A stretch of DNA of 64,000 nucleotides, from assembly GCA_964370755.1 (NCBI GenBank), contig CAYJKL010000001.1, forward strand, positions 9,046 to 73,045, written 5' to 3'. The notes under the pieces were generated by a model that had not been told where the DNA came from, ran no database searches, and was given only the letters and a program-made list of their open reading frames with translations. Positions 1-51,222 of the stretch are shown here, one piece after another. This stretch comes from an uncultured Muribaculaceae bacterium. GTDB lineage: Bacteria; Bacillota_I; Bacilli_A; RF39; UBA660. The translations under genes and the position numbers were made by a program. The stretch's first letter is position 1. Each line of letters begins with the position of its first letter.

Positions 1-1229
1 GCTTCATCTAAATCAAACTCTATATAACCCCTTGATACTTTTTCTGCTCTTAATATTTTAGCTAGTTCATTCATTTTAAGTAAGTAAGGAGCATATTCTT
101 CATAACCTTCTGGAGTTGTATTTTCCATAAGTATTTTATTTACTTCTTTATAAGTCATCTTTTTCTTTGATTTAATATATGACTCTTTAATTTCGTAATC
201 TACTACTTTACCTTTTTTATTAATTTCCATGAAACAACTAAGTGTTAATCTTATTACTTCTGGGTTAAGTGAACATATACCATTTGATAATTGATGAGGT
301 ATCATTGGTATTACTGTATCTGCTAAATATGAAGATGTTCCTCTTGAGTAAGCTGTTTCATATAAAGCACTTCCTATTTTAACATAATTTGTAACATCTG
401 CAATATGTACTCCTAATACATAGTTTCCATTTTTTTCCTCAATACTTATCGCATCATCAATATCTTTTGTATCTGCACCGTCTATAGTGAATATCATTTT
501 GTCGGTTAAATCTAGTCTACCTTTTAAATCTTTTTCTTCAACTTCTTTTGGAATAGTTTCTAGTTCTGCTATAACTTCTTCACTAAAATCAATTTCAATT
601 CCATGTTTACATGCAATAGATACAATATCAACACCTGGATCATTTTTATGACCTAGTATTCTAACTACTTCTGCGATATAGTGTGTTGTATTAACTTTTT
701 TTACTACATCTACCAATACTTTATGACCTTCTACGCAACCTTCAGTTGATTCTCTAGTTAAAGTTATATGTATATTTATTTTTTTGTCATCTGGCACGAA
801 AAATAATTTTTGTTTTTTGAAAGTTATTTCTCCTACGATTTTATTTAAGTCTCTTTTTAAAACTTTAATAACTTTTCCCTCTTTTTTACCATGATAAGTA
901 TATACATCTACTAAAACATAATCGTTTTCAATAGCACCATTTAGATTTTCTTTATATATATATATATCATGCTCTCCGCCGTAATCTAAAAATCCATTAC
1001 CTGCTCTGTTTACTTTTATTTTTCCAGTTTTAAGTGAACTACAAAATTTAAGTAATAAATACTCATCATTTTTAGTTTCGTGGATTAAACCATTTTCAAC
1101 CATATCTTTAATAACTTTAGTTAACTCTTTATATTCTTCTACTGTTTTAAGTCCTAATAAATTATTTATTTCCATTAAACTTTTCGCTTTGTTTACATTA
1201 TCTAGCGATACTAAAATTTGTTCTTGCAT
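1..1229 (-). CDS. rnr: Ribonuclease R (3'-5' exoribonuclease), N-terminal ~410 codons; the C-terminus lies beyond the left edge
   Basis: Absent from the ORF track because it runs off the window. My translation from ATG at 1229..1227 gives MQEQILVSLDNVNKAKSLMEINNLLGLKTVEEYKEL..., then the RNB-domain signature FTIDGADTKDIDDAISIE and SRGTSSYLADTVIPMIPHQLSNGICSLNP. AAAGGAGAA RBS just upstream. Confidence 0.85.
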   Translation of the reverse strand, partial: MQEQILVSLDNVNKAKSLMEINNLLGLKTVEEYKELTKVIKDMVENGLIHETKNDEYLLLKFCSSLKTGKIKVNRAGNGFLDYGGEHDIYIYKENLNGAIENDYVLVDVYTYHGKKEGKVIKVLKRDLNKIVGEITFKKQKLFFVPDDKKINIHITLTRESTEGCVEGHKVLVDVVKKVNTTHYIAEVVRILGHKNDPGVDIVSIACKHGIEIDFSEEVIAELETIPKEVEEKDLKGRLDLTDKMIFTIDGADTKDIDDAISIEEKNGNYVLGVHIADVTNYVKIGSALYETAYSRGTSSYLADTVIPMIPHQLSNGICSLNPEVIRLTLSCFMEINKKGKVVDYEIKESYIKSKKKMTYKEVNKILMENTTPEGYEEYAPYLLKMNELAKILRAEKVSRGYIEFDLDE

Positions 1230-1244
1230 TTTATTTTCTCCTTT

Positions 1245-1610
1245 TTATTCTGTATAAGTACATATTTTTTCATTTTCTTTCCACTCGATTACTATATCTC
1301 CAGTTAAAGATTTTGTGCTGTCGTTTGGATTTTCCAAATTTTCATCTAGTAGTCCCGCTCCAACTATATTTTCTACTGGTATATCTGTAATCTGACAATT
1401 ACTTTTATCAAGACAACGTTCATCTCTTAAGTTATTTGTCTCGGCATAAGTGCATGCAGCATTTTCTATTGTTTCTTTGTATATACTATATTGCTCTTCT
1501 TTTTGCGCATTCATAGACTTTATTATTCCCAGAGTAACTGATGTTGTTATTACCCCTAAAAGTAGTATACATACTAAAAGTTCAACTAGTGTAAATCCAT
1601 TTTTTTTCAT
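1245..1610 (-). CDS. Prepilin-type N-terminal cleavage/methylation domain protein (ComGC-like pseudopilin / type IV pilin-like)
   Basis: From the internal Met the ORF reads MKKNG|FTLVELLVCILLLGVITTSV: a short basic leader, Gly, then FTLVE and a hydrophobic helix, which is the class III signal peptide. I chose the start at 1610 rather than the tracked 1637 so the leader has normal length. It lies 15 nt upstream of rnr on the same strand. Confidence 0.7.
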   Translation of the reverse strand: MKKNGFTLVELLVCILLLGVITTSVTLGIIKSMNAQKEEQYSIYKETIENAACTYAETNNLRDERCLDKSNCQITDIPVENIVGAGLLDENLENPNDSTKSLTGDIVIEWKENEKICTYTE

Positions 1611-1705
1611 TATCATCACATAACCATTATAACACACATATTAACATATTGTTATTTATTTTAATAAAAATTTATGATATTATACTTAAGAAAGGAAAGA
1701 TTAAA

Positions 1706-3337
1706 ATGACAAATAAAGAATATTCTGATGTTTTGATGCCAAATGTGGAGCATGATGCACAGTATTATGAAAACTTATATAAAGAAAGATATTTAAGTGA
1801 AGATGCTATAGTTTCAAGATTTGGACCTAGTCCAACAGGACATATGCATATAGGGAATTTTTATAGTGCATTTGTTGCTAATACATTTCCAGCTCAAACT
1901 GGGGGCGTATCTTTTTTAAGACTTGAAGATACTGATCAAAAAAGAGAAATGGAAAATTCCCTTGGTAATATTCAAGAACAACTTAAAGAACTAAATTTAA
2001 TATTTGATGAAAGTAATGAAAACGGTGGAAACTATGGACCTTATCAACAATCTCTTAGAAAAGATATTTATCACGCCTTTGCTAAAAAAATGATTGAAGA
2101 AGATCTTGCTTATCCTTGTTTTTGTACACAAGATGATATAAATCACATTAGAGAAGATCAAGAATCAAAAAAAGCAAGACTTGGGTATTACGGTAAATAT
2201 GCTAAATGTAGATACATTTCAAAAGAGGATGCTATTAAAAACATAGAAGATGGTAAGTCTTTTATAATTAGATTAAAATCTCCTGGTTCTTTTTACAATA
2301 AAGTTGTCCTAAATGATTGTATTCGAGGTAAAATTGAAATGCCTGAAAATGATGTTGATGAAGTGTTAATTAAATCTGACGGACTTCCAACTTATCACTT
2401 TGCTCATGTTGTAGATGACCATTTAATGGGAACTACACATGTTGTTAGAGGAGATGAATGGGTATCAAGTTATCCTAAGCATGATCAAATGTTTAAAATG
2501 TTAGGATTTAAACTTCCTAATTTTGCACACATTTCTCCTATAAATATTAAAGATGGAGAATCTACTCGTAAATTATCAAAAAGAAAAGATGCTTGGGCAG
2601 CAATAAGTTATTATAATGAAAAAGGAATACCTAATGAAGTTATTAAACTTTACTTATCAACACTTTTTAATTCTAATTTTGAAGAATGGTATAACTCTGT
2701 TTCAGATTTAACTTATCATAACTTTAAATTTAGTTTTGATAAAATGCCAATAAGTGGTCCGTTATTTGATATTGAAAAACTTAATAATATTTCAAAAACT
2801 TATTTTAGTAGATTAACTGCGGAAGAAATTTATGAAAATTTATTAGTTTATACAAAAAAATATGATGAACAGTTTAATAATATAATTAGCAACAATAAAG
2901 ATTATGTTATTAACATGCTTAATATAGAAAGAGATGTTCCTAAACCAAGAAAAGATATATCAGCTTATAGTGATATTAAGAATATATATTGGTTTATGTT
3001 TGATGAATACTTTAGTGAAAACACTGATGAGTACGAAGAAGTAACAAATGTTACTAAAGAAAATTTAGAAAATTATTTTACAAAAGTGTATAGCGCTGAT
3101 GATTCTCAAGAAAATTGGTTTACAAATTTAGCAGAATATGCTGATAGTATTGGTTTTACTAAAGATAGAAAAGCGTATAAAGCTGATCCTGAATCTTTTA
3201 AAGGTACAACTGCTGATTTTTGTAAAATTATCAGAATAATAATAACTAAGAAAAACTTAAGTCCAAATTTATACGATATTATCAAATTACTTGGAAAAGA
3301 AAATTTATTAAAAAGAATTAATCAATACTTTGATTAG
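1706..3337 (+). CDS. gltX: Glutamyl-tRNA synthetase
   Basis: Class I aaRS motifs are present: SRFGPSPTGHMHIGNF (HIGH) and KLSKRK (KMSKS). I chose the start at ATG 1706 (MTNKEYSD), which is preceded by AAAGGAAAG. Confidence 0.9.
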   Translation: MTNKEYSDVLMPNVEHDAQYYENLYKERYLSEDAIVSRFGPSPTGHMHIGNFYSAFVANTFPAQTGGVSFLRLEDTDQKREMENSLGNIQEQLKELNLIFDESNENGGNYGPYQQSLRKDIYHAFAKKMIEEDLAYPCFCTQDDINHIREDQESKKARLGYYGKYAKCRYISKEDAIKNIEDGKSFIIRLKSPGSFYNKVVLNDCIRGKIEMPENDVDEVLIKSDGLPTYHFAHVVDDHLMGTTHVVRGDEWVSSYPKHDQMFKMLGFKLPNFAHISPINIKDGESTRKLSKRKDAWAAISYYNEKGIPNEVIKLYLSTLFNSNFEEWYNSVSDLTYHNFKFSFDKMPISGPLFDIEKLNNISKTYFSRLTAEEIYENLLVYTKKYDEQFNNIISNNKDYVINMLNIERDVPKPRKDISAYSDIKNIYWFMFDEYFSENTDEYEEVTNVTKENLENYFTKVYSADDSQENWFTNLAEYADSIGFTKDRKAYKADPESFKGTTADFCKIIRIIITKKNLSPNLYDIIKLLGKENLLKRINQYFD

Positions 3338-27756: not shown

Positions 27757-29694
27757 ATGCGTTTTTTTAAACTTAGTTTTAAACTTTTTATATTTGGCTT
27801 TATCTCTTTTGTTGTTATTATGGTAGCTCTTTATGTCTATGCCTATTTAAGCCCTCAGATTGATTTAAAAACTCCTGGTAATCTATATTTATATGATAAT
27901 AATAGTAATTTAGTTTATCAAGGTTCTAAATCTAGTCAGTGGGTAGAAATAGATGATATTAGTGACTATTTGATAAATGCCACTATTTCTGTTGAAGATA
28001 AAAATTATTATAACCATTCTGGATTTGATTATATAAGGATTGCTAGTGCTGCACTTACTAATATTCAAACAAGAAGTATTACTCAGGGTGCTTCTACTAT
28101 AACACAGCAATATGCTAAAAATATGTACTTAGATTTTAGTCAGACTTTTGAAAGAAAAATAGAAGAGGCCTTTTTAACTCTAGAACTTGAAGTTCACTAT
28201 GAAAAAGATGAAATTTTAGAAGGTTATTTAAATACTATATATTATGGACAAGGTAATTATGGTATTGAAAATGCTAGTAACTTTTACTTTAATAAAGATT
28301 CTAAAGATTTAACGCTTGAAGAAGCTATAATTTTAGCTGGTATACCTAATAGACCAAATGATTATAATCCTGTATCAAATTATGAAGCATCTGTTAATAG
28401 AGCTCTTATCGTTGCTAAAACTATGCTTGATAATGGTTATATTAGTGAAACTGAGTTTGAAGGTTTATTTGAAAATGAACTTGAAATATACGCTAAGAAT
28501 ACTGAAAATGATTTACAAATGGTTATGTATTATCAAGATGCTGTTTTAGATGAACTTTATTCACTTAAAGAAATTCCTACTTCTTTAATAGATTCTGGAG
28601 GTCTTAAAGTATATACCACACTTGATTTAGATGCACAAAAGAATTTAGAAGAAAATATTCTTGAAAATTTACCTGATGATGAAATACAAGTATCTAGTGT
28701 TGTTGCTGACCCTAATACTGGTGCAGTACTAGCTTTAACAGGTGGTGTTGATTATTCTCTTAGTACATATAATAGAGCAACTACATCTACTAGGCAAGTA
28801 GGATCTGTTATGAAATCTTTTCTTTATTATGCTGCTCTTGAAAATAATATGACTATGGCTTCTACTTTTAAAAGTGAGCATACTGTATTTACACTATCTA
28901 ACGATCAAGTTTATTCACCTAGTAATTATAATAATAAATATGCTAATAAAGATATTACTATGGCAGCAGCTCTTGCTTTTTCTGATAATATATATGCAGT
29001 TAAAACCAATCTTTTTTTAGGCATTGATAAAATGATTGATGTTGCTAAAACTACTGGCATTGAAGGCAATTTAAATGAAGTTGCTTCACTTGCACTTGGG
29101 ACTAGCGAACTTAGTTTGATAGATATTGCTACTGGTTATACTACATTTGCTTCTGGTGGATATGAAAGAGATTTATATTTTATTGAAAGAGTTGAGGACA
29201 TGAATGGTAATGTACTTTACGAAAAGGAACATGTAAATAATCTTGTTCTTAACCCTAACTATACATATATACTTAATGAAATGCTTGCTTGTACTACAAG
29301 TAATAAATTTAGTGATTATACTGTAGCAACAGGCGTTTCTATAGCAAATGAATTAACAAATAAGTATGCACTTAAAAGTGGTACTACTGATACTGATAAC
29401 TGGCATATTGGTTATAACGAAGATTTACTAGTTGCTATATGGATGGGTTATGATGATAATAAAGAGACCAATTCAACAGTGAGCCAAAAAGAAAGAAATA
29501 TTTGGGCTAGTACTATGGAAGATATTTTGGCAAATAAAAACACCAACTGGTATGATAAACCTGATAATGTAGTTGGTGTTATGCTTGATTCTGTTACTGG
29601 AGAAGCTCCTACTGATAGTGATAATAGTACAATATTTTATTTTCTAAAAGGAACTGAACCTGGAGCAAGCTCTTATGTTAGTACACCTGATTAA
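27757..29694 (+). CDS. Class A penicillin-binding protein (glycosyltransferase + transpeptidase)
   Basis: GT51 motifs SVEDKNYYNHSGFD and GASTITQQYAKN. Transpeptidase motifs GSVMKSF (SxxK), SDN, KSGTT. N-terminal TM anchor. Confidence 0.9.
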   Translation: MRFFKLSFKLFIFGFISFVVIMVALYVYAYLSPQIDLKTPGNLYLYDNNSNLVYQGSKSSQWVEIDDISDYLINATISVEDKNYYNHSGFDYIRIASAALTNIQTRSITQGASTITQQYAKNMYLDFSQTFERKIEEAFLTLELEVHYEKDEILEGYLNTIYYGQGNYGIENASNFYFNKDSKDLTLEEAIILAGIPNRPNDYNPVSNYEASVNRALIVAKTMLDNGYISETEFEGLFENELEIYAKNTENDLQMVMYYQDAVLDELYSLKEIPTSLIDSGGLKVYTTLDLDAQKNLEENILENLPDDEIQVSSVVADPNTGAVLALTGGVDYSLSTYNRATTSTRQVGSVMKSFLYYAALENNMTMASTFKSEHTVFTLSNDQVYSPSNYNNKYANKDITMAAALAFSDNIYAVKTNLFLGIDKMIDVAKTTGIEGNLNEVASLALGTSELSLIDIATGYTTFASGGYERDLYFIERVEDMNGNVLYEKEHVNNLVLNPNYTYILNEMLACTTSNKFSDYTVATGVSIANELTNKYALKSGTTDTDNWHIGYNEDLLVAIWMGYDDNKETNSTVSQKERNIWASTMEDILANKNTNWYDKPDNVVGVMLDSVTGEAPTDSDNSTIFYFLKGTEPGASSYVSTPD

Positions 29695-30650
29695 TTAGGT
29701 ATATTTATTTTAAGAACAATTGATCCATTTTCTTCTGTTTCAGTAAATGTTACATTTGGGTATTTTGAGATAAATTCTTTTATCTCATTTTTTATGTTAC
29801 TATCACTTGCTGGGCTTTGTGGCACATCAAATTCATCTAACATTTCTATTTCTTCAACTGCTGGACTTATTTCTGGAGCAGTCACACTCATGTTTGCTGA
29901 TTCATCTTCTAAAAAGTTAAAAAATTTATTTGGTACTTTTTCAGTATTATTTGGATTATTAAACATATTTTGCTCCTCTCTTTTTATTACTTCTTCTTTA
30001 GGAATTATTTTAATTGGCTCTATTTTAGGCTTTTCTTCAACGCCTTGCATTTTTATAATTTCTTCTTCTAATCTTTTTACACTTAATCTTTCATTTAATA
30101 TTTTATCAAGTAGTGTTTTTTGATCTTCTATTTTTTTTACTTTTAGAAGTGTTCTAGCATGTCTTTCTGAAATTTTTTCAGCAAGTATTGCATCTTGCAC
30201 ACTTTCATCTAAGCTAAGAAGCCTTAGTTTATTAGAAATAGCACTTTGACTAATCCCCATTTTTCTAGCAAGTTCCTCTTGATTCATTAAACCTTTATCA
30301 AGTAAAGCTTTATAAGATTTTGCTTCTTCTATTGCTGTTAAACTTTTTCTTTGAACATTTTCAACAATTGCTACTTCTGCACTTTTTGTATCTGACATTT
30401 CTGTTATTATTGCTGGTACTGAAATAAGTCCCGCTATTTTCGCAGCACGATATCTTCTTTCTCCTGCTATAATTTCATATTTATCATTTATTCTTCTTAT
30501 TATAATTGGCTGTATAATACCATGCTCTTTAATTGACTGTGCAAGTTCAGATAATGAGGCATCATCAAAAGCTAATCGTGGTTGAAAACGATTAGGTAAT
30601 ATGTCCTCTATTGGTATTTGCATTACATTATTATTATTCATGCTAGCCAT
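29691..30650 (-). CDS. noc: ParB-family protein, Noc-like (nucleoid occlusion protein) by position and recognition-helix residues
   Basis: ParB N-domain PNRFQPR and CTP-binding box IIAGERRYRAAK. The HTH GISQSAISNKLRLLSL...ISERHARTL resembles B. subtilis Noc (GKGQSTIANKLRLLKL...ITERHARAL) rather than Spo0J (GKSRPHIANHLRLLTL...LSMGHGRTL); this comparison is from memory. The C-terminus ...IVLKINIPN resembles Noc ...IQLTIRIPK. The gene lies immediately downstream of rsmG, as noc does in Bacilli. Confidence 0.75.
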   Translation of the reverse strand: MASMNNNNVMQIPIEDILPNRFQPRLAFDDASLSELAQSIKEHGIIQPIIIRRINDKYEIIAGERRYRAAKIAGLISVPAIITEMSDTKSAEVAIVENVQRKSLTAIEEAKSYKALLDKGLMNQEELARKMGISQSAISNKLRLLSLDESVQDAILAEKISERHARTLLKVKKIEDQKTLLDKILNERLSVKRLEEEIIKMQGVEEKPKIEPIKIIPKEEVIKREEQNMFNNPNNTEKVPNKFFNFLEDESANMSVTAPEISPAVEEIEMLDEFDVPQSPASDSNIKNEIKEFISKYPNVTFTETEENGSIVLKINIPN

Positions 30651-30736: not shown

Positions 30737-30756
30737 AAGTGCATACTTTTGCACTT
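30737..30756 (-). terminator. Intrinsic terminator after rsmG, separating it from noc
   Basis: Minus strand reads AAGTGCA-aaagta-TGCACTT followed by TTTTT. The hairpin overlaps the rsmG stop codon. Confidence 0.5.
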
Positions 30757-31459
30757 ACTTTAATTCTGATTTTATTATTTTATCGTATGGTCTTACGTTT
30801 TCTAAGTTTGATTCTTTAGTCTTAATAAATCTTACTATGTTTCTTTCTCCAGAATCATTTATCAGATTAAATTTTTCTTTTTTATCTACTGTTAAATTTA
30901 ATAGTTTAATTGTATTTTCGGCTTCTTTTAACTCTTCTGTAAGTGTACCTTTCATCGCAATAAAACTTCCATCTTTTTTTACAAAAGGAACACATAACTC
31001 TGTTAGTACTCTAAGGTTAGCTACTGCTCTTGCTGTTACTGCATCAAATTTATTTATGTTCTTTTTTAAGTAGTTTTCTGCTCTATCGTTTACTACGGTT
31101 ACCTTTGAACCGATACCATTTGATACATAATTTAAAAATTTAGTTTTTTTATTATTTGAATCTAAACAAGTTACTTCTAAAGATGGATAGAATATTTTAA
31201 GAACAATTCCTGGAAAACCCGCACCTGATCCTATATCTAGTAAGTTTGTAACAGTATTTAAATCAATTACTTTAGCTATTGTTAAACTATCGTAGAAGTG
31301 TTTTAAGTATACATCTTCTTTTTCAATAATTCTTGTTAAGTTTGTATGCTCATTATAATCTTTTAGAAGTTCGTAATATCTTTCTAATTTATCTAACATT
31401 TCACTAGTGTAGGTAATATTTAGTTTAGTTATTTCTTCTATAAATGTTTCTTTATTCAT
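30755..31459 (-). CDS. rsmG: 16S rRNA (guanine527-N7)-methyltransferase RsmG (GidB)
   Basis: SAM motif LLDIGSGAGFPGI. Conserved position after mnmG, with an 8-nt overlap. Confidence 0.9.
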   Translation of the reverse strand: MNKETFIEEITKLNITYTSEMLDKLERYYELLKDYNEHTNLTRIIEKEDVYLKHFYDSLTIAKVIDLNTVTNLLDIGSGAGFPGIVLKIFYPSLEVTCLDSNNKKTKFLNYVSNGIGSKVTVVNDRAENYLKKNINKFDAVTARAVANLRVLTELCVPFVKKDGSFIAMKGTLTEELKEAENTIKLLNLTVDKKEKFNLINDSGERNIVRFIKTKESNLENVRPYDKIIKSELK

Positions 31460-40699: not shown

Positions 40700-40960
40700 G
40701 TTTTTAATGTTGATAACTTTATGTGTATTTTTTTAGTAACACATTTTTAAACATAGTTATTAACATTTTACATTTCGATTTTTCTTTTAAATTCGACAAA
40801 TTTCGACTTTATTCACAAATTAACACCTATTAACATTTCTTAAAACAACACATAACTTATAAATGTTGGTTTGTTAATTGCAATTTGTTGATAAATGTTA
40901 ATAAGTATTTTTTTCTTGTAAATAAAAGCAATTTTGTGTTGATAAGTATGTGGAAAAAAT
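40700..40960. promoter_or_regulatory. oriC upstream module / dnaA promoter region: cluster of DnaA boxes (TTATCCACA-like)
   Basis: TGTTGATAA (complement of TTATCAACA) at 40708-40716, 40886-40894 and 40937-40945. TTATTCACA at 40809-40817. TGTGGAAAA (complement of TTTTCCACA) at 40949-40957. Weaker TTATTAACA-type boxes at 40757-40765 and 40896-40904. The gene-strand switch occurs here. Confidence 0.7.
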
Positions 40961-41039: not shown

Positions 41040-42386
41040 TTGAAAACTAATGAACTATTTAATAAATTTCTAAATGAGCTGGCTAATCAGTTAACTCCTA
41101 ATACTTATAGTATTTGGTTTTCAAAACTTGAGCTTGTTTCTATAACTGATGATGTTGTTACTATTAAAGTTCCAATGAATGTACATAAGACGATGCTGAG
41201 TGATAACTATTATAATGTTATTAACTCAACTTTTTATTCTATAACAGGTAAAGATTATACTTTTAAATTTGTTTTAGAAGAAGAACTTAATGATGTTACT
41301 AAAGTTATTGATACACCTAGTGCTGAAGAAGAACATGATTGGCATACTAATCTAAATACTGATCACGTATTTAATAATTATGTAGTTGGCGATACTAATA
41401 GACTTGCATTTATTGCGTCCAAGGCCGTTGCTGAAGCGCCTGGCACTATCCATAATCCTCTCTTTTTATACGGAAGAAGTGGTTTAGGTAAAACACATTT
41501 AATGCATGCTATAGGAAATTATGTTACTGAAAATACTAATAAAAAAGTTTTGTATACCACAAGTAATGACTTTATGACTGATTTTACTGGTATAGCTAAC
41601 ATTGATAAGGGTATTAATAGTATAAACTACGCTAATGAATTTAAGAATAAATATCGTAATGTTGATGTACTAATGATTGATGATATTCAGTTTTTAGTAG
41701 GAGCTGAGCGGACACAACAAGAGTTTTTTCATACATTTAATGCACTTCATCAAATGAATAAACAAATTATTATTACTAGTGATAGATCACCTGATGATTT
41801 AAAGAAAATTGAGGAACGCCTCAGAAGCCGCTTTAAATGGGGACTTCCTGTTGATATTTATCCACCAGATTTTAATCTAAGGTGTGAAATTATTAAAGCA
41901 AAAATCAAGAATAATATTATTGGTAAGAAAGTTGATAGTGATGTTATTGAATATATTGCTAATAGTTGTCCTAATGATGTTAGACATATAGAAGGTACTA
42001 TTAATAGATTAATGGCTTATACAGCTATGATGATTCCTACTAAGATTAATCTAGATTTTGCTATTGAAGCATTAAAAGATTATGTTAATAACAATGTTTA
42101 TTCTGATAATTCTATTTCAAATATACAACAAGTTGTTGCAGAATATTATAAAATTACTGTTGATGATATGAAAAGTAAGAAGAGAAATAGTAAAATTATT
42201 AGACCAAGACATGTTGCTATGTATTTATGTAGAAATGAAACTAGTGAAAATTTAGCAAAAATTGGTCTTGACTTTGGAGGACGTGATCATTCTACTGTTA
42301 TTGCTGCTTGTGAAAAGGTAAAACATGACTTAGAAAGTGATAAAGAACTTGATAAAGTGTTGAAAGAAATCAAAGAAAAGTTATAA
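41040..42386 (+). CDS. dnaA: Chromosomal replication initiator protein DnaA
   Basis: TTG start after GGTGAGGA. Walker A GRSGLGKTHL, box VII, and the C-terminal DnaA signature RPRHVAMYLCRNETSENLAKIGLDFGGRDHSTV. Confidence 0.97.
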   Translation: MKTNELFNKFLNELANQLTPNTYSIWFSKLELVSITDDVVTIKVPMNVHKTMLSDNYYNVINSTFYSITGKDYTFKFVLEEELNDVTKVIDTPSAEEEHDWHTNLNTDHVFNNYVVGDTNRLAFIASKAVAEAPGTIHNPLFLYGRSGLGKTHLMHAIGNYVTENTNKKVLYTTSNDFMTDFTGIANIDKGINSINYANEFKNKYRNVDVLMIDDIQFLVGAERTQQEFFHTFNALHQMNKQIIITSDRSPDDLKKIEERLRSRFKWGLPVDIYPPDFNLRCEIIKAKIKNNIIGKKVDSDVIEYIANSCPNDVRHIEGTINRLMAYTAMMIPTKINLDFAIEALKDYVNNNVYSDNSISNIQQVVAEYYKITVDDMKSKKRNSKIIRPRHVAMYLCRNETSENLAKIGLDFGGRDHSTVIAACEKVKHDLESDKELDKVLKEIKEKL

Positions 42387-42388
42387 AA

Positions 42389-42499
42389 TGTTGATAACTT
42401 TTAGTAACTAACACCTGTATCTTAGGGAAATTTATAAAGTTATTAACATTATCAACATTGTTATTATAAATAATATATAAAAAGAAAGAAGGTAAAAAA
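42389..42499. promoter_or_regulatory. oriC downstream module (dnaA-dnaN spacer): DnaA boxes followed by an AT-only stretch (candidate unwinding region)
   Basis: TGTTGATAA at 42389-42397. Two abutting head-to-tail boxes, TTATTAACA (42440-42448) and TTATCAACA (42449-42457), are followed by TTGTTATTATAAATAATATATAAAAAG. Confidence 0.6.
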
Positions 42500-43618: not shown

Positions 43619-43689
43619 TAACAAAATGTGACAATTTATTTAAGATTTTTATGTTAAAGTAGCATAAAAATTTTTTTATGGGGGAATTT

Positions 43690-44133
43690 ATGCAAAATAA
43701 TATAATTGATTTTGATACTTATGCTGTTATACCAGGGGTTAATGGTTCAAAAATTGTTAATAAGTTTAAAGTTTTTTTTGACTATAGAAACGTTAGGTCT
43801 ATTGTTAATTCTAGTTGTAAGTATTATGGAAGTAGTTTGGATGGCAGAATTAGTGGATCTAAAGAGATGCTTGGTATTTCGTATAAGGTTCCTATTATTG
43901 TTAGCGAAAACTTCAATTTGATATTTTTTCCAACGTCTTCTCCTAGGAGTGATGATTGTGTCTGGATAAATTTATGTGCTATTTTAGAATATAAGAGTAA
44001 ATCTAAAAATTTGGTGTTGGTAACTTTTAAAAATGGTAAAAAAGTGGTCTTAAATATTAGTTTCGGAGTGCTTGAGAAACAAATTTTGAGAGCTTCTCGT
44101 TTGGAAAGTATTTTTTTAGCAAGAAAAAGATGA
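43690..44133 (+). CDS. comK: ComK-family protein (competence transcription factor-like)
   Basis: SCKYYGSSLDGRISGSKEMLGISYKVPIIVSENFNLIFFPTSSPRSDDCVWINL...VTFKNGKKVVLNISFGVLEKQILRASRL aligns by eye with B. subtilis ComK SCRFFGSSYAGRKAGTYEVTKISHKPPIMV...IFLFPTLSSTRPQCGWI...VTFSNGKTMELPISYNSFENQVYRTAWL (recalled from memory). Start at 43690 after GGGGGA. Confidence 0.75.
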   Translation: MQNNIIDFDTYAVIPGVNGSKIVNKFKVFFDYRNVRSIVNSSCKYYGSSLDGRISGSKEMLGISYKVPIIVSENFNLIFFPTSSPRSDDCVWINLCAILEYKSKSKNLVLVTFKNGKKVVLNISFGVLEKQILRASRLESIFLARKR

Positions 44134-47253: not shown

Positions 47254-47265
47254 GAGGTGCTTATA

Positions 47266-49743
47266 ATGGATAAATTAGAACAACAAAATATAGTTAATGA
47301 AATGGAAAAATCGTTTCTTGAATATTCAATGAGTGTTATTATTTCAAGAGCACTTCCAGACTTAAGAGATGGTTTAAAACCAGTTCATAGAAGAATACTT
47401 TATGCGATGCATGAAGATGGTTTAACACCAGATAAAATGTTTAAAAAAAGTGCAACTACTGTAGGTAATGTACTTGGTAGATATCATCCACATGGTGATT
47501 CATCAGTATATGACTCAATGGTTAGAATGGCACAAGATTTTAGTTATAGATATCCTTTAGTTGAAGGACATGGTAACTTTGGTTCAATAGATGGTGATGG
47601 AGCTGCGGCATATCGTTATACAGAGGCAAGATTACAAAAATTATCTTTAGAACTTCTTAGAGATATTAATAAGGATACTGTTGATTTTGAAGCAAACTTT
47701 GATAATTCTAGAAAAGAACCTAAAGTATTACCTTCTAGATATCCAAATATACTAGTAAATGGTACTATGGGTATTGCAGTTGGTATGGCTACTAACATTC
47801 CTCCACATAATTTAGGAGAAGTAATTGATGGTTGTGTAGCTTTTATTGATAATAATGAAATAACTATTCCAGAACTTATGGAATACGTAAAAGGTCCTGA
47901 TTTTCCAACATCTGCTTCAATACTTGGTAATTCTGGTATAAGAAAAGCTTATGAAACTGGAAGAGGTTCAATTACTATTAGAGGTAAAGCTGAAATTATT
48001 GAGAAAAATAATAAATCTCAAATAATTATTACTGAACTTCCTTATCAAGTTAATAAGAAAAATTTCCAAGAAAAGATTGGACAACTTGTAAGAGATAAAA
48101 TAATTGATGGAATAGCAGATTTAAATGATGAATCTACGCTTAAAAATGGTATTAAAGTAGTTGTAACTCTTAAAAGAGATGCAAATGCTAATGTAGTACT
48201 TAATAACCTTTATAAACATACACAATTACAAACATCTTATGGTATTAATTTACTTATGTTAGATGAAGGTGAACCAAAAACACTAAATTTAAAAGAAATT
48301 ATAGAAAAATATACAAATTATCAGAAAGTTGTTATTGTTAGAAGAACTAAATTTGAACTAGCTAAGGCTGAGCGTCGTGTTCACATCTTAGAAGGTTTAA
48401 AAATAGCTCTTGATAATATAGATGAAGTTATTAAACTTATTAGGGCTGCTGCTACAGATGAAGAAGCTAAAAATGGATTAATGACTAAGTTTGGATTATC
48501 TGAAATACAAGCTGAAGCAATACTTGAAATGAAACTTAGAAGACTTACGGGTCTTGAAAAATCTAAGATTGAAGATGAACTTGCTGAGCTTATGAAGGAA
48601 ATAGATCGTTTAAGAGGTATTCTTGCTGATGAAGCTAAAGTTTTAGCTATTATTAAAGAAGAATTACTAGAAATTAAACATAAATATAATGATGAAAGAA
48701 GAACTAATATAGATATGACGGCTATAGAATTCATTGAAGATGAGTCGCTTATACCTGAAGAAAATATAATTGTAATGCTTACAAAAGCTGGTTATATTAA
48801 ACGTACACTTCCTGGAGAGTTTAAAACTCAAAACAGAGGTGGTGTTGGTATTAAAGGTATGACTACTAATGAAGAAGATATAGTTGAGCAACTTATTAAC
48901 TTATCAACACATGATTATATATTATTCTTTACAAATAAAGGAAAAGTATATAGACTTAAGGGATATGAAATACCAGAATTTGGTAGAACTGCTAAAGGAA
49001 TTCCTATTGTTAATTTACTACAACTTGAAAATGATGAAAAAATTAGTTCTGTTATACAAATTAAGAATGATGAAGCTAAAAAGTATTTATTATTTTCTAC
49101 TAAAACAGGTGTAGTTAAAAAGACTTTAATAGAAGAATTTAGTAATATTAGAACTACTGGTAAGATATCTATTAATTTAAGAGAAAATGATGAGCTTATT
49201 GCTGTTAGAAAAACTTCTGGCGAAGATATGATTCTTTTAGGGTCTAATGCAGGTCGTATGGTTAAATTCCTAGAAAGTGAACTAAGACCTATGGGAAGAA
49301 CTGCATCAGGCGTTAGAGGTATTAATTTAGGCGAAGCTGAATGTGTTTGTGCTGAAGTTGTGTCTGAAGATGATCTTATCTTGTTATTAACAGAAAAAGG
49401 ATATGGTAAGAAGACATTTGTAAGTGAGTTTAGACAAACTAAACGTGGTTCTAAAGGTGTTAAAGCACTTAATATTACTGATAAAAATGGTGCATTAATA
49501 TCTGTTAAAGTATTAAATGATGAAAATGAATTAGTACTTATGACAAATGTTGGTTTGACAATTAGAATGCCTCTTGAACAGATTTCTACATTAGGTAGAG
49601 TTACTCAAGGGTTAAGATTAATTAATTTAAAAGATAATCAACAAGTATCAAGTGCTGTATTACTAAAAATTGAACAAGAAGAAATAGAAACTGATTCAGA
49701 AACAAATGAATCAGAAGAAAATGAAGAAATTAGCGAAAGCTAG
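47266..49743 (+). CDS. gyrA: DNA gyrase subunit A
   Basis: [25 protein letters not shown] region [17 protein letters not shown], catalytic [12 protein letters not shown]-terminal beta-pinwheel repeats and an acidic tail. Start at 47266 after AGGAGGTG. Confidence 0.97.
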
Positions 49744-49793
49744 TTTTTTTTTTACTTGCTCTGCTCTATTGGTTTTCAATTTATATTAATATA

Positions 49794-50017
49794 TTATGTA
49801 AACTGAATATTTCCCGGGAAATAAAATTGTGAATAAATATAACGTTATTAACATAAAAATATTTCCCGGGAAATATTTTTATATGTTATGTAACCCAAAA
49901 TATTTCCCAAATTATAAAATTTTGTATAAATTTGTATGTTATGTTAACAAATTATTTCCCGGGAAATAATTTCGTTGCAACCAATTATTATGTAAACTAA
50001 TTATTTTCCAAAAATAA
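49794..50017. repeat. Tandem array of five ~41-53 bp units, each TTATGTAAAC-like + 4-5 nt + Noc-binding-site (NBS) palindrome TATTTCCCGGGAAATA
   Basis: Perfect 16-mers at 49808-49823, 49860-49875 and 49953-49968. A half-site-only copy TATTTCCCaaattata lies at 49901-49916, and a decayed copy TATTTTCCAAAAATAA at 50002-50017. TTATGTAAAC-type motifs are at 49794, 49886 (TTATGTAACC), 49939 (TTATGTTAAC), 49988 and 50081, with TTATTAACAT at 49845. The core equals the B. subtilis NBS consensus ATTTCCCGGGAAAT. Confidence 0.75.
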
Positions 50018-50328
50018 GTTAAGTTCTCTTATCAATATTTAATGATATATACCTGGCAAAATTTGTGTTTTTAAATAATATTATGTAAACCAAATTCTTA
50101 AGCTAGCTAATGCTCTTTTGTTTATTCTTATTTTTTTTAAAGTAGCTTAATATATTTCATTATTTATTTATAATTTGAATGATAGATATGTATTATAATT
50201 TCAATTATTCGTTTTTAAATTTATTATATATTTCTATTATAATATATTTTTTAAATTATTAGTTATATATATTAACAGATTGATCTTTCGTATTTATTAT
50301 AGTATATATCCTTAATTTTTACGAACAA

Positions 50329-51023
50329 TGTTCCACGTGGAACATTGTTTTTTTGTTGTATGTGTTATATATTGATATATTTTATGTATATTGATTCAAA
50401 TTTTCTTGGCTAGTAGTTATATAATTCATTAAAATATATTCAATGTTCCACGTGGAACATTGAGTGTTGATAACTTATACATATATTATTTGAGTTAAAT
50501 ATATATTTAATGTTGTTTTATTTTATTTATTTGTTAATAAAATCACCATTTTTGTAACTTTATATACTTTTGATGCGTTTGATGTTCCACGTGGAACATC
50601 ATGTTTATAATGCATTTTTTTAGTCTGTTATTTTAATTATAATATTTCAGTGTTAATAAATCCTATCTATTTTTTTTATTACGATTACAATGTTCCACGT
50701 GGAACATTGGTTATTTTTGTTGGTAACTTTCTCAATATAATTGAGTGTTATTATATTTTTTTGCCTAATTTACGCGGAAAATTCAATGTTCCACGTGGAA
50801 CATCAGCTTGTTGATAACTTATTTTCATGTTCTTTTTTTGATATATTAAATTAATGTTAATAAGTTTCCTATAAAATTTAAATAGTATTTTTTTCTTTAT
50901 ATGTTCCACGTGGAACATTAAGTGTTGATAAGTTTTATAACGAGAATGTTTTATTATAGATTATTTTGTGTTAATAATATAGTTAAGTATTTAGTATTTC
51001 AAAACAATGTTCCACGTGGAACA
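50329..51023. repeat. Array of seven identical, perfectly symmetric parS (ParB/Spo0J-binding centromere) sites
   Basis: TGTTCCACGTGGAACA at 50329-50344, 50444-50459, 50583-50598, 50691-50706, 50787-50802, 50902-50917 and 51008-51023. All copies share the 18-bp palindrome ATGTTCCACGTGGAACAT, and the first extends to 26 bp. This matches the parS consensus TGTTNCACGTGAAACA. The spacers are AT-rich and only loosely related to one another. Confidence 0.8.
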
Positions 51024-51097
51024 TTGTTAATAATTATCGAATTACTGCACTTTATGTGTATATTTTCTTTATTTTATGGCGATTTTATGTTTTTTTC

Positions 51098-51126
51098 TTG
51101 TTTTTCAATGTTAATTATGATATAAT
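51098..51126 (+). promoter_or_regulatory. Putative extended -10 sigma-A promoter for the SRP RNA gene (TTGTTT - 17 nt - TGaTATAAT)
   Basis: Read directly from the sequence. The -10 TATAAT at 51121-51126 is preceded by TG at 51118-51119. The predicted start is near G51133. Confidence 0.5.
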
Positions 51127-51132
51127 TTATAC

Positions 51133-51210
51133 GTGCAACAAATATATTGTAATCTGGTCAGGATCGGAAGATAGCAGCCACGTCAATCCCTATTTGTGTG
51201 CACTTTTTTT
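51133..51210 (+). ncRNA. ffs: Small (4.5S-type) signal recognition particle RNA
   Basis: CTGGTCAGGATCGGAAGATAGCAGCCACG matches the universally conserved SRP RNA domain IV (E. coli CCAGGUCAGGUCCGGAAGGAAGCAGCCAAGG) including the GGAA tetraloop. The closing stem is GTGCAACAAATA...TATTTGTGTGCAC, followed by T7. It sits next to tadA/dnaX, as scr does in B. subtilis. Confidence 0.65.
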
Positions 51211-51222
51211 ATAGGAGAATTT

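Follow-up and report, generated by a model that had tools for sequence, protein, structure and literature searches.

In the 64,000-nucleotide window analysed here (contig CAYJKL010000001.1, from an uncultured gut Bacillota with a small genome), the interval between gyrA and the signal recognition particle (SRP) RNA gene ffs is probably a chromosome centromere. Judging from its sequence, it would offer a tight array of parS sites for loading of ParB 9-10 kb from the replication origin oriC, with DnaA boxes on several of the parS and, in about half of the lineage, a Noc-like loading site sharing the spacer. The components, namely parS, Noc-binding sites (NBS) and DnaA boxes, are of known kinds, and it is their arrangement that is new. 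The new aspects are the extreme density of parS at a lineage-conserved position, the recurring offset between parS and DnaA box, the frequent adjacency of NBS, and a presumed Noc-type reader without a membrane anchor. An earlier note on this DNA had described the interval as a tripartite platform of NBS units, an A+T-only stretch and an array of parS and DnaA boxes.

A search of the 64 kb found seven copies of TGTTCCACGTGGAACA with 0 mismatches, spaced by 96-139 nt, and no further match with up to three mismatches (0.09 expected). All seven sites exactly match the chromosomal parS consensus TGTTNCACGTGNAACA, a 16-bp palindrome:

50329-50344, parS 1, TGTTCCACGTGGAACA
50444-50459, parS 2, followed by TGTTGATAA at 50465-50473
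50583-50598, parS 3, exact match
50691-50706, parS 4, exact match
50787-50802, parS 5, followed by TGTTGATAA at 50809-50817
50902-50917, parS 6, followed by TGTTGATAA at 50923-50931
51008-51023, parS 7, with TGTTAATAA next to it at 51025; the SRP RNA gene lies about 100 nt downstream

The parS units that the earlier note had placed at 50329-51023 are thus borne out as seven exact copies, far beyond chance. The array is origin-proximal: both the dnaA start and the GC-skew minimum are 9.3-10 kb away. An 18-nt core, ATGTTCCACGTGGAACAT, is identical in 7/7 copies, while alignment of the six spacers between the sites scores 0.57, compared with 0.55 ± 0.04 in shuffled sequence. The spacers are unrelated and the cores identical, and therefore the cores have been kept by selection; the pattern points to purifying selection that holds the parS cores exact while their surroundings drifted. 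Recent tandem duplication as the source of the identical sites was rejected, as the spacers resemble one another no more than shuffled sequence does, and Tandem Repeats Finder reported no array in the parS region. Together with its flanks (50323-50360), parS 1 can form a 12-bp stem followed by a T-run, and this hairpin may double as the gyrA terminator.

The array is also a lasting feature of the lineage. Relatives were collected by a GyrA scan with one genome per species, which gave three close metagenome-assembled genomes (MAGs), and by graded look-ups of GyrA homologues, which gave six more loci. Eight more distant loci (GyrA 57-68%) came from scanning metagenomes for pairs of parS at a distance of 95-125 nt. 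One locus, L002, ends at gyrA and has no downstream sequence. In the 16 related loci (GyrA 57-96% identical) the spacer after gyrA always contains parS, 2-8 of them, and NBS in about half. The order gyrA-spacer-(ffs)-tadA-dnaX is kept throughout, with a spacer of 0.3-2.3 kb. The loci picked by GyrA, with the window for comparison, are as follows:

Window, GyrA 100%, 7 parS, 3 NBS in the spacer, NBS first
L001, GyrA 96%, at least 3 parS (contig ends), 2 NBS, NBS first
L010, GyrA 89%, 6 parS, 2 NBS, NBS first
L003, GyrA 88%, 2 parS, 2 NBS, all within 300 bp, NBS first
L011, GyrA 83%, 4 parS, 0 NBS
L006, GyrA 82%, 8 parS, 0 NBS
L007, GyrA 75%, 3 parS, 2 NBS, interleaved with parS
L012, GyrA 73%, 4 parS, 0 NBS
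L008, GyrA 71%, 7 parS, 3 NBS, after parS

In the nine loci picked by GyrA alone (71-96%), parS were found in 9/9 spacers and NBS in 6/9. The 8.7 kb of spacer in these loci contain 43 parS and 13 NBS, whereas the remaining 214 kb contain 2 and 6, respectively; for NBS the spacer is thus 53-fold denser. The comparison of gyrA-ffs synteny among relatives, proposed earlier as a check on the paired arrays, is therefore largely positive. The eight distant loci have 5-8 parS directly after gyrA, and 3/8 have NBS. Across the related genomes, the two arrays share the spacer in about half, without fixed order or spacing.

Differences in parS from one lineage to another fall mostly on the two positions that the consensus leaves free, TGTT[C/T]CACGTG[G/A]AACA, and some lineage parS start with A or G instead of T. 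Scattered exact NBS lie outside the arrays in L007, L012, L047 and L062. L007 has a second NBS cluster on the other side of oriC, in the mnmE-jag spacer (1227-1315), where two exact NBS and one copy with two mismatches are 36-37 nt apart. In L083, a more distant member of the lineage, seven identical parS follow gyrA at offsets 135-365 with a period of 38-39 nt, much tighter than in the window. Short-read contigs break at the array, L001 inside it (end 4512) and L002 just after gyrA. Because contigs break at or before the array, copy numbers from MAGs are lower bounds.

The NBS array occupies the gyrA side of the interval. Three exact copies of its core ATTTCCCGGGAAAT are present, at 49809, 49861 and 49954, and each extends to TATTTCCCGGGAAATA. 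The next-best match in the window has two mismatches, and no exact NBS was found there outside the spacer. The NBS and a third motif that accompanies them are:

49808-49823, NBS 1, perfect 16-bp Noc-type palindrome TATTTCCCGGGAAATA
49860-49875, NBS 2, perfect
49901-49916, decayed NBS, TATTTCCCAAATTATA, left half-site intact
49953-49968, NBS 3, perfect
50001-50016, decayed NBS, TTATTTTCCAAAAATA, read straight from the sequence
49793-49803, 49987-49997 and 50080-50090, plus strand, third motif ATTATGTAAAC, three perfect non-palindromic copies on one strand, the first of them 4 nt 5' of NBS 1

With three perfect and two decayed units, again far beyond chance, the NBS units proposed at 49794-50017 stand. 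The half-sites of parS and NBS, TGTTCCAC and TATTTCCC, differ at three positions, of which two are the specificity positions; the remaining one corresponds to the unconstrained N in the parS consensus. The statement that the two site classes differ at two positions per half-site is right for the specificity positions, but three positions differ here. The parS and NBS cores are the sole G/C-containing 12-nt palindromes in these spacers, and there are no intermediates between the classes. The 9-mer TGTGAATAA, a DnaA box with one mismatch, lies 3-4 nt after an NBS both in the window (49828-49836) and in L007 (12537-12545), so that DnaA-box-like motifs may be associated not only with parS but also with NBS.

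The third motif has further copies with one mismatch at 49886 and 49939. It is located 4 nt upstream of NBS in two copies (one exact, one mismatched) and persists beside decayed NBS, and its exact copies in the window are confined to the gyrA-ffs spacer. Among relatives it is restricted to the closest ones, L001 (4070 and 4110) and L003 (12486), and L003 has an additional reverse-strand copy outside the spacer, at 952. No known binding protein was matched to ATTATGTAAAC. The ram and ricS sites were considered as its identity and rejected, since neither matches.

The parS sites are accompanied by DnaA boxes of the kind found at oriC:

50465-50473, 50809-50817 and 50923-50931, minus strand, DnaA-box variant TTATCAACA, identical to the oriC 9-mer
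50532, 50651, 50855, 50969 and 51025 (starts), minus strand, five weaker TTATTAACA copies with two mismatches, read as TGTTAATAA
40637-41039, oriC region, upstream of dnaA (41040-42386), at the GC-skew minimum

The variant TTATCAACA is a one-mismatch DnaA box with three copies in 460 bp of the parS array; its reverse complement, TGTTGATAA, follows parS after 5-6 nt in three cases. The same variant is found upstream of dnaA at 40708, 40886 and 40937, and between dnaA and dnaN at 42389 and 42449. The perfect box TTATCCACA is absent from the gyrA-ffs interval, and from the spacers flanking dnaA as well. The DnaA-box array of the earlier description is thus real in that the boxes are tied to parS, but it consists of imperfect variants only. 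We counted 9-mers with up to one mismatch from TTATCCACA over the 16 lineage spacers. Box density is 6.4/kb within 30 nt of parS, 0.85/kb in the rest of the spacers and 0.94/kb in flanking DNA, an enrichment of about 7-fold near parS, with 34 boxes observed against 3.2 ± 1.8 in composition-matched shuffles. Most parS-linked boxes in these spacers lie 0-9 nt to one side of the site, reading TGTNGATAA. Because the boxes next to parS are the oriC variant, DnaA likely sits on the centromere as well, as reported for Caulobacter. A general rule that couples parS to DnaA boxes was rejected; in other taxa the enrichment near parS is just about 2-fold (0.55 vs 0.26 per kb), and the coupling is mainly a trait of this lineage.

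One gene in the window encodes a protein of the ParB family:

29691-30650, minus strand, ParB-family gene, the only one in the window, beside rsmG (30755-31459, same strand)

The product has a ParB N-terminal domain and a helix-turn-helix (HTH) domain and is closest to Noc. Its best PDB matches are the Noc structures 7OL9, 7NG0 and 7NFU (E = 1e-55), ahead of Spo0J 6SDK (E = 1e-48). Specificity in this family is set by four positions, RTAG in ParB (R173/T179/A184/G201) and QKKR in Noc (PMC7383237). According to Jalal et al. 2020, Q173 reads A1 of NBS and R201 reads C6, given K179 or K184 (PMC7383237). The window paralogue has Q-K-S-R, that is, Q173, R201 and one permissive lysine, and its 120 best homologues are all Q173-K179-[T/S/N]184-R201. 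Therefore, the paralogue is predicted to read NBS, and it is the presumed NBS reader of this genome. A ParB paralogue with the specificity residues of the Noc-type branch that the earlier note had invoked is thus encoded 19 kb away.

The membrane-related part of Noc is another matter. Against the NCBIfam Noc model (TIGR04285) the paralogue scores 269.8 bits, below the cut-off of 315, and matches model positions 1-202 of 255. The N-terminal amphipathic helix of Noc (amino acids 1-14) is absent; only 8-10 residues precede the ParB box, in this protein and in each of the 40 homologues that were inspected. This helix is conserved in all Noc examined and is needed for function (PMC4331003). Because the paralogue has no such helix, the membrane tethering and division inhibition that had been ascribed to a Noc-type complex here cannot be assumed. 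The linker of the paralogue is variable and disordered, with invariant PNKFFNFLED..ANM and EEIEMLDD motifs, and a small C-terminal domain follows. Its K-F-F-x-F-L pattern resembles the R-F-F-G-L core of the Noc helix, a resemblance only, and the linker motifs could be a relocated peptide for membrane or partner binding. In the AlphaFold model the N-terminal, HTH and small C-terminal domains have a pLDDT of about 80, and the linker with the FFNF motif is of low confidence; therefore, the model neither supports nor excludes an amphipathic helix.

The reader of parS is expected elsewhere. Motif scans, and phmmer searches with Spo0J and Noc against all six-frame open reading frames (ORFs), found no second ParB and no ParA in the window, nor a ParA with a deviant Walker A motif. 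No soj/spo0J pair follows the Noc-like gene in the window or in L009, a 304-kb contig in which this gene stands next to rsmG as in the window. The ParB-type complex that was proposed to be nucleated at the array thus has no parS-reading ParB or ParA of its own in the window, and such a ParB would have to lie elsewhere in the genome. The parB gene of Staphylococcus aureus reportedly lies far from noc, and the absence of parB from 64 kb is therefore weak evidence. S. aureus ParB is an orphan, without ParA (PMC5540599).

The interval itself appears to be free of genes. Its borders and its most unusual stretch of composition are:

47257-49743, plus strand, gyrA, left border of the locus, Pfam DNA_topoisoIV and gyraseA_C
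50116-50281, extreme A+T stretch, the sole 150-nt windows with G+C of 10% or less in the 64 kb
51125-51219, plus strand, SRP RNA gene (ffs, small), right border, Rfam RF00169, 56.6 bits

The 1.38 kb between the gyrA stop at 49743 and the SRP RNA gene (49744-51124) contain no tRNA. Besides the SRP RNA, a comparison of the interval with Rfam gave nothing better than E = 0.2, and promoter-like matches are at chance level (18 vs 16.6 expected). Its small ORFs have no counterpart in the 16 related loci, except for an ORF that overlaps the SRP RNA gene. A hidden gene was therefore rejected, and the earlier statement that no credible ORF or RNA gene lies here agrees with the tRNA, Rfam and ORF comparisons. 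The A+T-only stretch noted at about 50100-50320 is real in its extreme composition but narrower than described; the part with G+C of 10% or less covers 165 nt, and 50100-50320 as a whole has 14% G+C. It is not kept in relatives, and the spacer of L003 is ordinary sequence. Such a stretch is expected of unconstrained DNA because the genome has 27% G+C, and it is probably an unconstrained spacer.

The window as a whole is a 27% G+C origin region with its GC-skew minimum near 40 kb. Its gene order runs from rnpA-side genes through oriC, dnaA, dnaN, a ComK-family gene, recF, gyrB and gyrA to the spacer, SRP RNA, tadA and dnaX. The ComK-family gene (43678-44133, plus strand, Pfam PF06338, E = 1e-36) lies between dnaN and recF in the identical place in all related loci, an odd neighbour for replication genes. 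The genome also has SpoIID, SpoIIR and BofA genes besides ComK, and the close MAGs have 25-28% G+C. Given this gene content and the low G+C, the ENA label 'Muribaculaceae' on the close MAGs is implausible.

In the centromere model that we favour, the seven parS would be loading sites for a canonical CTP-dependent ParB clamp, predicted to be encoded outside the window. With seven sites packed into 0.7 kb, ParB should load rapidly at one point, 9-10 kb from oriC, and would then spread outwards from the array and recruit SMC, as it does in other bacteria. DnaA bound to the array could couple assembly of the partition complex to initiator status, or the array could titrate DnaA. The NBS, three perfect and the decayed ones, would be loading sites for the lone Noc-type paralogue beside rsmG. 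Several points weigh against this model. Neither a parS-type ParB nor a ParA was found in the 64 kb or in the origin loci of relatives, of about 20 kb. The copies within one array are not independent observations, and all sequences are metagenome assemblies, in which repeat copy number is uncertain. The offset and orientation of box and parS vary, being mirrored in L010 and 28 nt away in L011. In addition, the spacers of L006, L011 and L012 have no NBS.

A more ambitious interpretation is that of the earlier note, in which NBS, A+T spacer and parS/DnaA-box array form one co-selected platform and Noc- and ParB-type complexes must assemble next to each other for the origin to be organised, tethered or insulated. 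NBS and parS share the spacer in the window, L001, L003, L010, L007, L008, L047 and L062/L118 despite array turnover, NBS are 53-fold enriched in the spacer, and a TGTGAATAA box comes after NBS in both the window and L007. However, the order is reversed in L008 (parS first) and interleaved in L007, NBS are also missing in 5/8 of the distant loci besides the three GyrA-picked ones, the A+T spacer is not conserved, and the Noc-like protein lacks a membrane helix at its N-terminus. It may also be that a long spacer without genes close to oriC simply lets any site array expand. The co-location of the paired arrays therefore recurs, but the fixed tripartite layout does not hold, and we regard an obligatory joint platform as doubtful. 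We are equally reserved about a three-protein origin-organising unit, in which DnaA would gate or stimulate ParB loading and the Noc-like paralogue on NBS would tether or insulate the same few kb; centromere assembly would then follow initiator status, and the paralogue would have lost the helix while keeping the invariant FFNF linker motif. In the bolder form of this unit, the paralogue would be the only ParB-family protein of the lineage and would load at NBS and at parS alike. In favour of this, neither the 64 kb nor L009 shows another ParB-family gene, soj-spo0J is missing from its usual position after noc, position 184 is S/T/N and not K in the 120 best homologues, and dual-specificity variants were recovered in the mutational library of Jalal et al. 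(82 variants, PMC7383237). On the other hand, the parS-specific binders have an invariable R173 and Q173 goes with NBS preference (PMC7383237), each site class is kept exact without intermediates, and the missing parB counts for little. Because Q173 accompanies the loss of parS binding in the mutational data, a single protein that serves both site classes is unlikely.

Two further explanations would make ParB secondary or remove it altogether. The locus could mainly titrate DnaA, or act as an auxiliary origin or second unwinding site, given that three TTATCAACA and five TTATTAACA lie in 0.6 kb on one strand, close to oriC, and adjoin the most A+T-rich 150 nt of the window. Yet the GC-skew minimum, at about 40 kb beside dnaA and not at 50 kb, and the boxes flanking dnaA put oriC at about 40.6-41.0 kb. 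In addition, no box is perfect, the boxes track parS and form no array of their own, L003, L048 and L083 have parS arrays without boxes, and the A+T stretch is not conserved; such a main role seems improbable to us. Alternatively, the palindromes might bind no ParB-family protein at all and be REP- or MITE-like repeats, terminator hairpins or parts of a hidden gene. Four parS palindromes do score as terminator-like hairpins, and parS 1 with its T-run may end the gyrA transcript. However, both palindromes exactly match two experimentally defined ParB-family sites and vary only at tolerated positions, neither occurs in the remaining 62 kb, their flanks are not conserved as in a mobile element, and there is neither a conserved ORF nor an Rfam family, which leaves this explanation hardly tenable.

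Dense parS arrays are not confined to this lineage. A scan for parS pairs returned at least 120 metagenome contigs and 37 'viral' contigs with 24-70% G+C. Among the 157 contigs listed, 97 have at least three parS within 2 kb and one has 15, and most have a ParB gene nearby. On L024, an unrelated contig of 35% G+C, 15 canonical parS are packed into 2 kb (1086-3100), next to a dnaA-like gene. A dense parS array alone is common in metagenomes, under-described yet not rare. NBS beside parS, among the matches listed, were seen only at the low-G+C gyrA-tadA loci of this lineage, and in our literature searches we came across no report of NBS and parS arrays occurring as a pair.

Recognition of parS by ParB, of NBS by Noc and of DnaA boxes by DnaA is each well understood, and is normally studied at separate, dispersed sites. 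An uncultured small-genome lineage of gut Bacillota gathers all three site types in one short spacer at the origin side. If this co-location is functional, the locus would be a compact natural test bed of less than 1.5 kb, small enough to synthesise. It would then address how two paralogous CTP-dependent clamps share or partition DNA, whether DnaA directly controls centromere assembly outside Caulobacter, and what role is left for a Noc-type protein that has no membrane anchor. Should the co-location have no function, our data still document widespread, very dense parS arrays and a conserved centromere position in the lineage.

Comparison with known systems places the locus among several of them. 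RacA/ram and RicO/ricS are systems with cis sites near Firmicutes origins that could tether the origin (bioRxiv 10.64898/2026.03.06.710092). Their protein families and motifs are unrelated to those discussed here, and ricS1 GTTTGTCTGAGGTTAGAC is unlike any motif in the interval. The ram-like GC-rich inverted repeat TGACGCCGGCGTCA has no match with up to three mismatches in the 64 kb, and with 0 ram-like sites the RacA/ram-like origin anchoring that had been suggested finds no sequence support.

The F plasmid sopC is a set of tandem sites for SopB, a ParB-family protein, and like the present array it packs tandem ParB-family sites into less than 1 kb. Here, instead, the motif and the locus between gyrA and ffs are chromosomal, the sites are unevenly spaced (96-139 nt), and the sequences between them are unrelated. 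The DnaA-box clusters (DBCs) of Bacillus subtilis and the datA locus of Escherichia coli lie outside oriC; the boxes described here likewise form a cluster outside yet close to oriC, but they are interleaved with parS and positioned relative to these sites, and all are imperfect. Like the Noc-NBS system of B. subtilis and S. aureus, the lineage has the core ATTTCCCGGGAAAT, a paralogue by rsmG with Q173/K179/R201, and scattered NBS in relatives. Here, however, NBS form a tandem cluster beside the centromere and not single dispersed sites, and the paralogue differs from Noc in lacking the amphipathic helix, falling below the NCBIfam cut-off, carrying S/T/N at 184, and having a long disordered linker.

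In most bacteria parS are clustered within 5-40 kb (PMC8357415; PMC7022226). The chromosomal clusters, such as the Spo0J sites of B. subtilis, the four parS of Pseudomonas aeruginosa, and those of Caulobacter and Corynebacterium glutamicum, share with our locus the 16-bp motif tGTTNCACGTGNAACa, the origin-proximal position and the presence of several sites. The present array differs in having seven identical sites in 0.7 kb of one spacer, which is about 10-50 times denser, and in its lineage-conserved position after gyrA with no parB or parA gene nearby. Comparably dense arrays on metagenome contigs of other taxa, in contrast, are usually beside parB. In Caulobacter, the parS locus contains DnaA boxes that are bound by DnaA, and movement of the centromere requires DnaA (Mera et al. 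2014, reviewed in PMC6399470). Like the parS locus of Caulobacter crescentus, the gyrA-ffs interval has DnaA boxes inside the putative centromere region, a hint that the initiator acts at the partition site; here, instead, a box variant stands at a short recurring offset from individual parS, the binding is predicted, and the host is a low-G+C Bacillota.

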